DNA of 14,310 nt, taken from IMG/VR virus record IMGVR_UViG_3300012663_000706. The stretch is one strand, 5' to 3'. A model generated the notes under the pieces. It made no database searches. It was not told the DNA's origin and saw only the letters and a program-made list of their open reading frames with translations. This DNA comes from a virus. Lineage: Duplodnaviria; Heunggongvirae; Uroviricota; Caudoviricetes. The position numbers were made by a program, and so were the translations under genes. Positions 1,974 to 10,558 of the stretch are shown one piece after another; position 1 is the first letter of the stretch, and each line of letters begins with the position of its first letter.

Positions 1974-4724
1974 TTAAGATTCCTGCGCGATCATTGCTTG
2001 TGCAATGTTGACTGAAATGTAACCTTCTTTTTTAAAGAATTCTTGAGCTAATTTTTTAACTTTATTGATTTGCGAACCTTTAATTCTGTTTTCAGCGCCA
2101 TCAGCTTCAGCGTTCCATTCAGAAACTGCTAATGAAAAGGTATCTTCAAAGTCTTTAGATTTATTTGCAAATTCTTTATTTCCTTGTCCTGAAGTATCAG
2201 TGTTATAATCTGCCCAATATTCAGTATCGATTGCTTCATAAATTTCAAATCCATTTGCTTTAATTTCTTTTTTAGCTTTGCGTAATTCAACTGCATTTTT
2301 TGCTTTAACTATCATTTCTTCAGAGTCCAGTCCGGGTTGTGCAACTGCATCAACTCCAGCCTCTTTTAATAAACTTTGAATGTAGTCAACATCGTCTTCA
2401 TCCGTGTTATAAGGAAAGGAAAATAAGAATGACGCAGCTTCATTAGTAACTGATTCTGCAAGAGAACTTGTTAATGTTCCAACGCATGCACCGTAATCAT
2501 CTCCACATTTTTTAAGAATACCATCAACTACTTCTCCAGCTTTTGCTTCGTCAAAGTCAGCACCAAATGCTTTCTTTAAAACAGAGAACGCATATTCTTT
2601 AAATTCTTCGTCAGATTTAACTTCTGCTTCAGTAACAACTGATTCTGCTACGTTTGATTCCCACCAGTTTTTAAGTTCTTCAAAACTAGATTTGCCCATA
2701 TTAGAAATCATGTATTCGATAATGTCATTATCATAATCTTCAGCTTCATCTCTGTAACCGCCTGGAGTATCGATATAATCTTTACCCATGATTTTCTTGA
2801 TTCTAACCTCTGGCATACCATCGATTTCCTCTAAGAACTCTTCAAAATCTTGAGTACTTTTAAACTTCTCAGCTTCATTAACTTTAGATTCATACATATT
2901 AATAATAGCTCCTAAGTCTGCAAGTTTAACTGCTTTTCCTTTTTCTTCACCACTATCATCAGAGAAGTATAAAACTCCAGCATCTAATAATTTTTTGAAA
3001 ACTTCTGCTTTAACAATACTAAAGTCAATAGCATCACTTGAATTTTCCCATGAATCTCCTACGTATTCTGGATCAATCCAACCCATACCTCTTTTAATAT
3101 CTTTAATCATTGAATCAAGATCCTTATCGAATTGCTTTGCTTCGTTGATTTGTTCTTTAACTATTTTAATAGAAGGGTTATGTTTAGACTCTTCTACTTT
3201 ATAAGTTTTACCATCAAATTCGAATTCTTTCTCTCCAGCTTCTTTAGCTTTTCTAACTGCATCTCCGAAAGCATTACCTTCTTCTACTTTGTAAGTTTTA
3301 CCATCGAATTCAAATTCTTTCTCTCCAGCTTCTTTAGCTTTTGTTACTGCATCTCCAAAGGCATTACCTTCTTTAACTTCTTCGTCATCTTCGTTAACTT
3401 TCTTAGCGCCTGCTACCTTGTATGTTTTACCATTAAATTCAAAAGTCTTTTCTCCTTTGTTTCTAGCAGCAAATAAGGCTCCAGTGAATGCGTTACCTTC
3501 AGTAACTACTAATTCTAGGTCTTTGTCCTTGTCGGTGATTGCGTCATCTAATTCAGCTTCTAACTTTTTCTTTTGAGCAGTTAAATCTTTTAATGTATTT
3601 AATATTGCTGCTTTTTCATCTCCTTGAGATTGTTTCCAAAGTTCAGCAGTATTTTTCATCTGATTGATAATCTTTGTGAAATCATTTTGGATTTTGTTAA
3701 TTGAACGAGCTTCGTCAACTTTAACAGTTGCTGATTCGTTTGCTTTACCAAATGCAGTATCTAATGTTAGACCAACATTTGGTTCTCCAATAGATTCTAA
3801 ATATTTACGGAATCCTAAAGTAATATCATAACCGTTCCATTGTCCTGCAGATGAAATATCTGAAGTCCATTTTCCTTGCCATGCTTCGATTTCTTTTTTA
3901 CCAATTGATACTGTAGTTCCTGATAAACCTGGAACATCAACAGTAATAGCTTTTCCATATGCATTAAAGAATGATTGGAAAGCTGCAAAACTTGCATCTT
4001 TAGCCTCATTGTAGAAATTAGCATCTTCCATAGCGTCCATATATAAACCATCTACAATTGCAACATGTTGCGCTTTGTCTTTAGTCAATAGAGGGGCTCC
4101 AGCAAAAATCTTTTGAAGTAATTTAAAAACTTTAGTTTCTGATCTTGCTTCGAAAATATATTCGCCATTAATCGGATCGAATGCTATAGTTAATACTCCT
4201 TCTTCGATGAATTCTGCTAAACCACTGTCTTCGCCATCTCCTTCCCAGAAGTTCTTAATCATCTGTTCTAGATCTTTTTTCTTACCAACATATTCAACTT
4301 CTGGCCAACCGCCTGCTGGGCCATTCATATTTACAATTTTCCACTTGATACCTTTTTTCTTACAAAAAGCAACTAAACCTTTTTCGTCTGGTTCCATTGC
4401 GTCTAATGTAACATTAGCTTCATCAAGTTCTGATTCTAGTTCTTCGCCATCTTTAGGATCTGCCTGTTTAGGTTCTCCTAAATCTTTAATATCATCTACG
4501 ATTTCTTCTTCGCGATCTTCGTTAAATAATTTAGAATATAGTGCTTTTCTTTTTTCTTCGTCTAATTCAGACATATCGCTTATTTGCAACTCGTCTAAAA
4601 TAGCAGAGATTTTTTCAAGAGATTTTACTCTTTTAACCTTGTTTTCCTGTTCAGTCTTAATTGCCGTTTCTTGGTTTCTCATTTCTGAGAAAGACTTGAA
4701 GGATGAAATTTTGTTTAGTTCCAT
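1974..4724 (-). CDS. 916-aa acidic modular protein, probable internal head protein / prohead-protease-processed polyprotein
   Basis: Long ORF, very Glu/Asp/Lys-rich. N-terminus MELNKISSFKSFSE resembles a T4 internal-protein targeting peptide. Recurrent [ILV]-x-E|[AGS] junctions, three copies of a ~30-aa EGNAF...FEFxGKTYKV module, and one coiled-coil segment. Function is inferred. Confidence 0.55.
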   Translation of the reverse strand: MELNKISSFKSFSEMRNQETAIKTEQENKVKRVKSLEKISAILDELQISDMSELDEEKRKALYSKLFNEDREEEIVDDIKDLGEPKQADPKDGEELESELDEANVTLDAMEPDEKGLVAFCKKKGIKWKIVNMNGPAGGWPEVEYVGKKKDLEQMIKNFWEGDGEDSGLAEFIEEGVLTIAFDPINGEYIFEARSETKVFKLLQKIFAGAPLLTKDKAQHVAIVDGLYMDAMEDANFYNEAKDASFAAFQSFFNAYGKAITVDVPGLSGTTVSIGKKEIEAWQGKWTSDISSAGQWNGYDITLGFRKYLESIGEPNVGLTLDTAFGKANESATVKVDEARSINKIQNDFTKIINQMKNTAELWKQSQGDEKAAILNTLKDLTAQKKKLEAELDDAITDKDKDLELVVTEGNAFTGALFAARNKGEKTFEFNGKTYKVAGAKKVNEDDEEVKEGNAFGDAVTKAKEAGEKEFEFDGKTYKVEEGNAFGDAVRKAKEAGEKEFEFDGKTYKVEESKHNPSIKIVKEQINEAKQFDKDLDSMIKDIKRGMGWIDPEYVGDSWENSSDAIDFSIVKAEVFKKLLDAGVLYFSDDSGEEKGKAVKLADLGAIINMYESKVNEAEKFKSTQDFEEFLEEIDGMPEVRIKKIMGKDYIDTPGGYRDEAEDYDNDIIEYMISNMGKSSFEELKNWWESNVAESVVTEAEVKSDEEFKEYAFSVLKKAFGADFDEAKAGEVVDGILKKCGDDYGACVGTLTSSLAESVTNEAASFLFSFPYNTDEDDVDYIQSLLKEAGVDAVAQPGLDSEEMIVKAKNAVELRKAKKEIKANGFEIYEAIDTEYWADYNTDTSGQGNKEFANKSKDFEDTFSLAVSEWNAEADGAENRIKGSQINKVKKLAQEFFKKEGYISVNIAQAMIAQES
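3191..3370. repeat. Two tandem 90-bp intragenic repeats (3191-3280, 3281-3370); a third diverged copy at ~3414-3500
   Basis: Direct alignment shows 7 mismatches in 90 nt. They encode EGNAFGDAV(T/R)KAKEAGEKEFEFDGKTYKVE; the diverged copy encodes EGNAFTGALFAARNKGEKTFEFNGKTYKV. Confidence 0.95.
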
Positions 4725-4751: not shown

Positions 4752-4762
4752 CTTATATATTC
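4752..4762 (-). promoter_or_regulatory. Candidate late-type promoter box (GAATATATAAG)
   Basis: Lies in the 61-bp gap ~30 nt upstream of the 916-aa ATG. Similar RATAWATA boxes occur in other intergenic gaps, and it resembles the T4 late TATAAATA box. The AT-rich background limits significance. Confidence 0.4.
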
Positions 4763-9124: not shown

Positions 9125-9133
9125 TTATATATC
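9125..9133 (-). promoter_or_regulatory. Candidate late-type promoter box (GATATATAA)
   Basis: Same RATAWATA motif as at 4752-4762, 10551-10558 and 1959-1966, in the non-coding gap upstream of the SSB gene. Confidence 0.35.
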
Positions 9134-9880: not shown

Positions 9881-10249
9881 TTAGATTCTTTTACCAAGAG
9901 CTGCGCCAAGAGCGGCACCAACTAATCTTGAAGTGAACATATCATACATTAATCCACTTTGGATTCCTAATACTTTACAAATAGTTTTACCAATAGTAGC
10001 ACCAAGAGCAAATCCTGCTAAACCGCCGACAATAGAACCAAGAAGACCTTCATTGGTAAGTTCCTCATTGAATCTTTCGAAATCATAAGTACCATCTTCA
10101 TTTTTATATGTGACGATAAATTCTTCTAGAGCAGTATCAACTTTAGCTTCTAATTCCGGAGTCCATTCTGAAATAAGAGATTCTGATAGAATCTGTAAAT
10201 CTTTTTCAGTAACATCTTGTTCTAATAAATATTGTTCGAATGTTTTCAT
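9881..10249 (-). CDS. 122-aa protein: capsid-targeting-like N-terminus, acidic pro-region and C-terminal glycine-zipper membrane domain
   Basis: Starts MKTFEQYLLE. Residues 1-67 are acidic; residues 68-122 are hydrophobic with G71-G75-G79-G83-G87 and G111-G115-G119 zippers. TAATG-coupled to the upstream ORF. Confidence 0.65.
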   Translation of the reverse strand: MKTFEQYLLEQDVTEKDLQILSESLISEWTPELEAKVDTALEEFIVTYKNEDGTYDFERFNEELTNEGLLGSIVGGLAGFALGATIGKTICKVLGIQSGLMYDMFTSRLVGAALGAALGKRI

Positions 10250-10545
10250 TATTTAATTGCTTTAGTTAATTGGTCTGATAATTCGTAAGGATCGATTCTG
10301 AAAGTAAATCCAGCAGCATCATGTCCAGCTTCGAACCATAAACAGGTTGCTAGCATTGGAGCCGCAGTTTGTAAAGCGTTTTCAAGTTTCTCAACAACTG
10401 AATTTTTACCATTCTTATATACTACATCTAGAGTTTTAGAATCTGGTATAAAATTAATACCAAGACCTTTTCTATCTACGATTGTATGCACTGTGAATGT
10501 TAAATCCTCAATTTTAACTTTACCTTCTGTGATTAAATCTTTCAT
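10249..10545 (-). CDS. Hypothetical protein (98 aa)
   Basis: Coding-strand ORF coupled (TAATG) to the 122-aa gene. Starts MKDLITE|G and is preceded by an AATATATA box. Confidence 0.7.
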   Translation of the reverse strand: MKDLITEGKVKIEDLTFTVHTIVDRKGLGINFIPDSKTLDVVYKNGKNSVVEKLENALQTAAPMLATCLWFEAGHDAAGFTFRIDPYELSDQLTKAIK

Positions 10546-10550
10546 ATAGT

Positions 10551-10558
10551 ATATATTA
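10551..10558 (-). promoter_or_regulatory. Candidate late-type promoter box (AATATATA region)
   Basis: Minus strand GATAATATATACTATATG in the 22-bp gap before the 98-aa ORF. It is very close to the ATG, so any transcript would be nearly leaderless. Confidence 0.3.

Follow-up and report, generated by a model that had tools for sequence, protein, structure and literature searches.

The packaged cargo of tailed phages is usually described gene by gene, and to our knowledge tailed double-stranded DNA phages are not known for polyprotein strategies. In phage T4, the capsid-targeting sequence consists of 10 residues, MKTYQEFIAE. The existence and role of this sequence have been described (PMC9026906, PMC3012670), and the prohead protease gp21 cleaves after Glu in L/I-X-E, an activity first seen at a Glu-Ala bond (PMC9026906). 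Here we analyzed a stretch of 14,310 nucleotides (nt) from IMG/VR virus record IMGVR_UViG_3300012663_000706 (hereafter the window), a minus-strand block of genes from an uncultured T4-like phage, in which an open reading frame (ORF) of 916 amino acids (aa) had been read, from the sequence alone, as a protease-cleaved polyprotein of about ten small modules (the original prediction). The ORF is real and lies on the minus strand, which that prediction did not state. Our analysis indicates that its product is probably a cargo polyprotein, loaded into the prohead and cut by the prohead protease.

All junctions listed in the original prediction are present in the protein: LDE↓A102 (the arrow marks the putative cut, the number the position of Glu), IEE↓G175, IFE↓A192, VDE↓A338, VTE↓G409, VKE↓G452, VEE↓G482, VEE↓S512, INE↓A528, VNE↓A617, VTE↓A699, TNE↓A762 and IYE↓A830. 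We found three more, VAE↓S694, LAE↓S757 and LKE↓A788. Strict [ILV]-x-E↓[AGS] sites occur 15 times, a count that none of 5000 composition-preserving shuffles attained (4.5 ± 2.0 sites). Site frequency was therefore 3.3 times that of the shuffles, and this check, proposed with the original prediction, favored the polyprotein reading. The single half-motifs were not enriched ([ILV]xE, 25 versus 20; E[AGS], 32 versus 26), so the excess resides in the conjunction of the two; a small residue followed 60% of the [ILV]xE triplets, against ~23% expected. As an internal control, the other 13 ORFs of the window were pooled and showed 9 sites versus 9.0 expected.

Homologues of the polyprotein numbered 552 in the metagenome protein collection (503-1116 residues among the matches listed), several of them on contigs of 130-255 kb. 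Statistics based on these homologues, here and below, count related sequences and are not independent. As genomic relatives we used five large IMG/VR records of 139-200 kb (G002-G006); the nearest record (G001), an 18.8-kb fragment without the protease, is not among them. Sites were enriched 3-5 fold in all 120 homologues listed (mean z 5.9), and 29% of the spacings between adjacent sites were only 4-7 residues. Such tandem sites follow the consensus hydrophobic-x-E↓S-V-V-(N/T)-E↓(A/G); the window protein contains two, AE↓SVVTE↓A and AE↓SVTNE↓A.

About twelve sites of the polyprotein are conserved across 52 diverged homologues. At positions 102, 175, 338, 409, 482, 617, 699, 757 and 830, hydrophobic-x-E↓A/G/S is kept in 44-52 aligned sequences, and the motif at VDE↓A338 is present in 52 of 52. 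In the conserved sites, P1 Glu is fixed, P1' is small and P3 is Ile, Val or Leu, whereas P2 changes freely (IDE, VNE, VDE, INE, IFE, ISE). To judge from the alignment, this is the behavior of a short peptide recognition motif, and the sites match the gp21 rule L/I-X-E (PMC9026906). The original prediction had cautioned that some sites in so Glu-rich a protein would be due to chance, and this caution was appropriate for a few of them. E192, E512 and E788 are poorly conserved (9/13, 13/38 and 1/5, respectively, in the 52-sequence alignment); E192 and E512 are doubtful as cut sites, and E788 is probably a chance site, because the module around it is homologous over its full length to a stand-alone protein (see below).

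An AlphaFold model of the 916-aa protein, built from the 52-sequence alignment, resolved a string of small units, with a predicted local distance difference test score (pLDDT) of 54 overall. With the unresolved stretch 132-340 excluded, 11 of 13 sites were located in linkers of pLDDT<50, which make up 30% of the region (binomial p 8e-5). The sites thus lie between folded units, as the polyprotein reading had demanded of the fold boundaries. Residues 103-175 (module 8), cut exactly at E102↓A and E175↓G, folded alone into a compact beta-alpha-beta-beta-alpha structure (pLDDT 94; predicted template modeling score 0.83; 116-sequence alignment), and a structure search of the Atlas independently aligned a 77-residue viral protein cluster to residues 103-176. 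The three GNAF repeats start at residues 410, 453 and 483, directly after E↓G, which bears out the earlier claim that each repeat begins at such a junction.

Searches for known families and folds returned little. The whole 916-aa model had no fold match at an expectation value (E)<=0.001 in BFVD or PDB, and Pfam had no significant family in the polyprotein or its 52 homologues. The sole PHROGs match for the same proteins was phrog_5922 (an 85-residue family, no function given) on residues 124-163; ESM Atlas feature searches returned nothing usable. Fold searches with module 8 gave only a generic two-layer alpha/beta likeness (KH, ACT, ferredoxin-like; best Z 5.9, best Foldseek E 0.017). We regarded this similarity as noise and assigned no function.

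The modules behave as units in evolution. In an all-against-all comparison of the 120 homologues, 56% of the ends of internal BLAST alignments fell within 3 residues of a site, versus 12% for random positions; alignment ends are not independent, so these values are only descriptive. Cutting the 120 homologues at their sites yielded 53 module families of near-constant length (e.g. 68, 69, 73 and 55 residues). Their architectures share a frame, consisting of the N-terminal module, the coiled-coil-like module, module 1 and the C-terminal module 4, and between these frame modules the presence, copy number and order of the others vary; "5 6", "6 5" and "6 15 5" were all seen. One to four copies of the GNAF repeat are found before or after the coiled coil, and module 8, near the N-terminus in the window protein, is at the C-terminus in G006. 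Orthologues are not colinear but show gain, loss, duplication and reordering at the sites, in agreement with the original proposal of modules exchanged as units.

A module 8 profile was searched exhaustively against 1.84 billion representative proteins (E<=0.001) and matched 413 proteins, 68 to 1111 residues long among the matches listed, with the module in every possible position; a word-based search for stand-alone module 8 proteins had yielded a fragment only, so that the profile search was needed. One candidate, P0260 (2820 aa), was rejected as a false positive on Calx-beta-like repeats. Among 132 complete domains, hydrophobic-x-Glu stands directly before the module in 119 and at its end in 120, mostly as IEE↓S. 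Some of the proteins consist of a leader plus the module, e.g. MKNVKQFESFINE↓A.... Leaderless genes of 68-75 residues also occur, one among small genes on a 163-kb phage-like contig, and cultured T-even type phages (Karamvirus) encode a distant leaderless relative of 90 aa, located in an early-gene region between gene 32 and frd. In Cronobacter phage Pet-CM3-4 (NC_055726.1 149910-150182; L134:2399-2671), this protein shows 42% identity over 43 residues to module 8. P0122 (764 aa) carries five tandem module 8 copies joined by non-Glu linkers (IEPARGGRRASTQ...), which suggests a lineage using the module array without the Glu cleavage grammar.

Stand-alone equivalents were also found for other modules. 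Module m26, an internal module of three polyproteins, is present in two copies in a 182-aa ORF that directly follows the polyprotein gene in G002 and G004; in G002 this ORF begins MKHIQLFEQFINE↓G, and m26 starts just past INE↓G. Residues 763-830 of the window protein match residues 14-81 of a 165-aa leader-tagged ORF of G004 (beginning MKKVKLFEEFINE↓G; E 2e-31), where the match starts after INE↓G and ends at INE↓S. As this match runs end to end, with sites at both ends, E788 is inside the module and E762 and E830 are its true borders. Two modules therefore stand right after a leader like the T4 capsid-targeting sequence, as a search for stand-alone homologues, suggested with the original prediction, was meant to reveal. 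In G005, a GNAF module is found inside the protease-scaffold protein (described below), directly after VEE↓G. By these comparisons, the modules are evolutionary units moving among polyproteins, leader-tagged single-module proteins, a protease-scaffold protein and leaderless small genes. Another polyprotein family, unrelated to this one, starts with the short leader MNFNEFLNE↓G and is likewise joined by tandem E↓S...E↓[AGS] linkers (G002 81334-83673; G004 166180-168285; G006 36528-38414).

In the related genomes, up to ~25 ORFs per genome start with a leader like MK(H/K)(I/V)xL(F/Y)E(Q/E)F(I/L/V)NE, in most of them with Glu at residue 13; inside proteins, the pattern is ~1-2% as frequent per 32 residues. 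The leader resembles the T4 capsid-targeting sequence. Leader-tagged ORFs are found, for example, at G004 66248-69808 and 84499-87430, and leader-like starts were seen in three ORFs of the window as well (Table 1). The N-terminus of the polyprotein itself, M..NKISSFKSFSE↓M, resembles the leader MK.I.LFE.FINE↓, although it has one residue fewer and P1' is Met/Val.

All five large relatives encode a Peptidase_S77 (T4 gp21) domain that scores above the Pfam cut-off. The gp21-type protease invoked in the original prediction is thus present in these relatives, and that of the window phage itself is taken by proxy. Complete Peptidase_S77 ORFs are 616-686 residues long (L094:3158-5077 in G002; G003 114741-116735; G005 125939-127999; G006 64213-66063), and that of G004 is truncated by the contig end. 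Their C-terminal part (~450 residues), which is helical, acidic and rich in sites, looks like a fused scaffold; directly past the protease domain there are sites such as VNE↓A and VNE↓G. When ORFs were ranked genome-wide by site enrichment, the polyprotein homologue and the protease-scaffold ORF were the top two in four of the five relatives (G002, G003, G004 and G006). G005 was the exception: its polyprotein family is split into two genes ranking first and second, and the protease-scaffold ORF is outside the top six.

The window contains no copy of the T4 late promoter, TATAAATA. In G002, the portal, protease-scaffold, tail sheath, tail tube and fiber genes are preceded at 25-42 nt by a different motif, [AG]ATATATA(A), which also stands upstream of several leader-tagged genes. 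All five relatives carry it 37-42 nt ahead of the polyprotein homologue, while only 13-24% of their ORFs have it, and in these relatives the polyprotein and protease-scaffold genes are both preceded by it at 30-42 nt. In the window, the motif stands before the polyprotein gene (Table 1), and the helicase and primase genes lack it. Probably, [AG]ATATATA(A) is the late promoter of this clade, replacing TATAAATA of T4, and from the shared position of the motif we infer late expression of the polyprotein gene together with head genes.

Coordinates of the modules and of other features of the window are listed in Table 1. All modules are acidic (pI, isoelectric point, 4.2-5.1), except one 43-aa repeat at 6.5.

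Table 1. Modules of the 916-aa polyprotein and other features of the window (nt positions; residue numbers refer to the polyprotein)
Feature	Position	Strand	Remarks
Whole polyprotein ORF	1974-4724	minus	916 aa, 102 kDa, pI 4.6; 552 homologues
Residues 1-102, conserved N-terminal module (family m3)	4419-4724	minus	starts M..NKISSFKSFSE; ends LDE↓A
Residues 103-175, module 8 (GPAGGWPEV)	4200-4418	minus	autonomous beta-alpha-beta-beta-alpha fold; ends IEE↓G
Residues 176-338, 17-aa hairpin and module 9	3711-4199	minus	internal E192 doubtful; ends VDE↓A
Residues 339-409, conserved two-helix coiled-coil-like frame module (m2)	3498-3710	minus	ends VTE↓G
Residues 410-512, three GNAF repeats (m0)	3189-3497	minus	helix and beta-hairpin, 30-43 aa, each after E↓G
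Residues 513-528, 16-aa spacer	3141-3188	minus	ends INE↓A
Residues 529-617, module 5, helical	2874-3140	minus	ends VNE↓A
Residues 618-694, module 6	2643-2873	minus	ends VAE↓S
Residues 695-699, SVVTE spacer	2628-2642	minus	between tandem sites E694↓S and E699↓A
Residues 700-757, conserved frame module 1 (KKCGDDYGACVG)	2454-2627	minus	ends LAE↓S
Residues 758-762, SVTNE spacer	2439-2453	minus	between tandem sites E757↓S and E762↓A
Residues 763-830, one module	2235-2438	minus	homologous to stand-alone G004 ORF; ends IYE↓A
Residues 831-916, conserved C-terminal frame module 4	1977-2234	minus	pLDDT 82-92
Late-promoter-like motif AATATATA(AG)	4754-4761	minus	37 nt before the polyprotein ATG
Further copy of the motif	9126-9133	minus	
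Further copy of the motif	10550-10557	minus	
Stretch listed together with the 427-aa ORF beside the polyprotein gene	3-635	minus	
427-aa ORF	637-1920	minus	adjoins the polyprotein gene; leader-like start MMNTLQTYKEFLLE↓R
122-aa ORF	9881-10249		leader-like start MKTFEQYLLE↓Q
98-aa ORF	10249-10545		leader-like start MKDLITE↓G

The polyprotein gene is flanked by a ligase-like gene and a UvsW-like helicase gene; the window also encodes a primase, a gp32-type single-strand-binding protein and a RuvC-like resolvase. The ligase-like gene is the 427-aa ORF, which has a KxDG nucleotidyltransferase motif (EKTDGQN) and had no match in Pfam or PHROG. Its homologue in G002 lies three genes past the polyprotein gene, inside a leader-tagged island.

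Based on these features, the following route can be proposed. The polyprotein gene would be transcribed late, alongside head genes, and the product would be taken into the assembling prohead core, probably via its conserved N-terminal module. A gp21-type serine prohead protease would then cut after Glu in the hydrophobic-x-Glu↓(Ala/Gly/Ser) linkers, at about 12-14 positions, and cuts at the tandem double sites would release spacers of 4-7 residues. From one translation product there would arise, in equal amounts, ten or eleven small acidic proteins of 3.3-15.9 kDa, plus the short spacer peptides. Finally, the pieces may stay in the head, enter the host with the DNA and do jobs that other phages give to early gene products; for this last part, retention and injection, we see close to an even chance, leaning slightly toward doubt. 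The original prediction of a cassette of internal head proteins therefore stands as far as the sites, the modularity and the protease of the relatives are concerned, and loading, cleavage, retention, injection and any effector function are inferred.

Several observations weigh against this route. The polyprotein gene has replication genes, not head genes, as its neighbors. The polyprotein lacks the canonical 13-residue leader of the clade, and in its N-terminal FSE↓M, Phe occupies P3 and Met occupies P1'. The protease of the window phage is deduced from relatives whose polyprotein homologues are 47-53% identical (best matching segment), and no cultured member of the clade was found (a whole-protein tblastn search of 50,697 phage records gave no match). 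The modules are acidic, while the internal proteins (IPs) of T4 are described as basic (PMC9026906); acidity fits degradable core proteins as well as retained cargo. Conservation of the motif at domain ends could partly reflect linker ancestry, and the linker DNA is stereotyped at synonymous positions. Across 44 ESVV(N/T)E cases, which are not independent, Ser is encoded by TCA in 86%, versus 36% elsewhere in the same genes. One 18-nt form of the linker dominates, the commonest being GAATCAGTAGTTACTGAA (linkers of 49 homologous genes, loci L003-L082; window 2628-2642). Such stereotyped DNA possibly serves as microhomology for module exchange.

Most fragments of T4 gp22, gp67 and gp68 leave the head before or during DNA packaging. 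The polyprotein might, in the same manner, be a sacrificial core or scaffold accessory that is cut in the prohead and whose fragments leave before or during DNA packaging, the modules serving assembly through size, spacing or charge. Its many sites, strong acidity and coiled-coil-like module recall the core proteins of T4, from which gp21 produces several fragments (PMC9026906), and a GNAF module is part of the protease-scaffold protein of G005. With their acidity, in contrast to the basic T4 IPs, the modules may have a scaffold-like role, but we consider it unlikely. The protease ORF already has a scaffold-like, site-rich extension of ~450 aa; a geometric scaffold would not be expected to shuffle rapidly, vary in copy number or comprise over 50 module families; and the modules, at 7-16 kDa, form compact folded domains instead of short peptides. 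Module 8, as leaderless genes of 68-75 aa and as an early-region relative in T-even phages, apparently works outside capsid assembly. Because of these leaderless copies in other phages, the separate scaffold-like region on the protease and the equivalence of modules to leader-tagged proteins, we favor delivery over degradation of a scaffold.

Quite improbable, in our estimation, is a multidomain protein of the polyvalent type that remains one chain, packaged or not, with linkers that are inherited joints and conserved DNA that promotes recombination. Mosaicism is known for polyvalent proteins, as is occasional delivery in uncut form (PMC5512222), and the TCA bias and dominant 18-nt form of the ESVV(N/T)E linkers are in line with such joints. 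However, at orthologous sites P2 and the choice of hydrophobic P3 vary while Glu and the small P1' are fixed, which points to selection on the peptide, not the DNA. Moreover, many unrelated proteins have N-terminal leaders that terminate in the site motif, which is also overrepresented in the protease-scaffold ORF, and the frequent tandem double sites suit cleavage; the idea of recombination joints and that of cleavage are not mutually exclusive. The replication neighborhood of the gene and the lack of a canonical leader could also be explained if cleavage of the polyprotein took place outside the capsid, either through the phage protease before assembly or through a different Glu-specific peptidase, and its proteins were released in the producing cell and not in the next host. 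This we hold to be very improbable: the late-promoter-like motif is common to structural genes, the cleavages by T4 gp21 occur within the assembled prohead (PMC9026906), and the modules are interchangeable with proteins bearing a capsid-targeting-like leader.

If the polyprotein is indeed loaded and cut in the prohead, one gene would give rise to ~ten capsid-delivered proteins in a fixed ratio, and the cleavage grammar would mark the exact ends of the mature products. Unannotated phage sequence would become a defined list of small testable proteins (552 homologues; 413 module-carrying representatives), cargo would evolve by cassette exchange at linkers, and the gene would represent a natural design for loading multiple proteins into T4-type capsids. 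More speculatively, and with greater doubt than confidence, we suggest that aquatic phages of the T4-like kind maintain over 50 small modules as a combinatorial library, delivered ready-made with the DNA, either singly behind a capsid-targeting leader or as cuttable polyproteins, with modules for anti-defense or takeover, some of them acidic DNA mimics, and linker DNA that enables exchange. Were this so, the site grammar would provide exact boundaries for hundreds of uncharacterized candidate anti-defense proteins.

The components of such a system are already known: gp21-type cleavage after Glu, a targeting leader, fast-evolving internal proteins, mosaic delivered proteins and multi-cut head proteins of giant phages. 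In the full-text literature that we searched, no tailed-phage gene is described as many independent modules strung between prohead-protease sites. T4 IPI, IPII, IPIII and Alt resemble the system described here in a gp21-family protease (here in the relatives), in cleavage sites of hydrophobic-x-Glu plus a small residue and in being fast-evolving cargo (PMC9026906, PMC3012670). The T4-like leader on many proteins of the clade, and polyprotein modules interchangeable with leader-tagged proteins, add to this likeness. In T4, however, each gene gives one mature protein by a single N-terminal cut (plus a C-terminal cut in Alt), whereas the single gene described here combines ~ten modules with 12-14 internal sites and with tandem double sites. 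In place of the T4-type leader of 10-13 residues there is a conserved N-terminal module of 102 residues, and the products would be acidic instead of basic. With the T4 core proteins gp22, gp67 and gp68 the polyprotein shares acidity and several gp21 sites. It differs in that its gene is outside the head cluster and the scaffold-like region of the clade is fused to the protease; searches of the polyprotein family in Pfam and PHROGs showed no sequence similarity to gp22, gp67 or gp68.

Polyvalent proteins of phages and conjugative elements (Iyer et al. 2017, PMC5512222) likewise contain many unrelated, shuffled domains, are mosaic and are predicted to enter the host together with the DNA. They are defined by 2-15 unrelated domains in a mosaic phage polypeptide, and the polyprotein has ~ten modules, drawn from 53 families in the 120 homologues. 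In polyvalent proteins the domains are recognizable enzymatic or anti-restriction domains, sometimes with a peptidase in the chain; of that repertoire (ART, MuF, ParB, peptidases and others), none was seen here, no Pfam family being significant in the 52 homologues, and release would occur in trans, by the prohead protease at stereotyped linkers. The head and ejection proteins of the giant phages phiKZ and SPN3US are comparable in that gp21-related proteases cut after Glu, propeptides are cut several times and an abundant internal protein is involved (PMC10052503, PMC9026906). Those proteins keep one mature fragment, their propeptide is degraded and their motif is A/S/G-x-E, whereas in the polyprotein every segment between sites appears to be a folded, independently mobile module.

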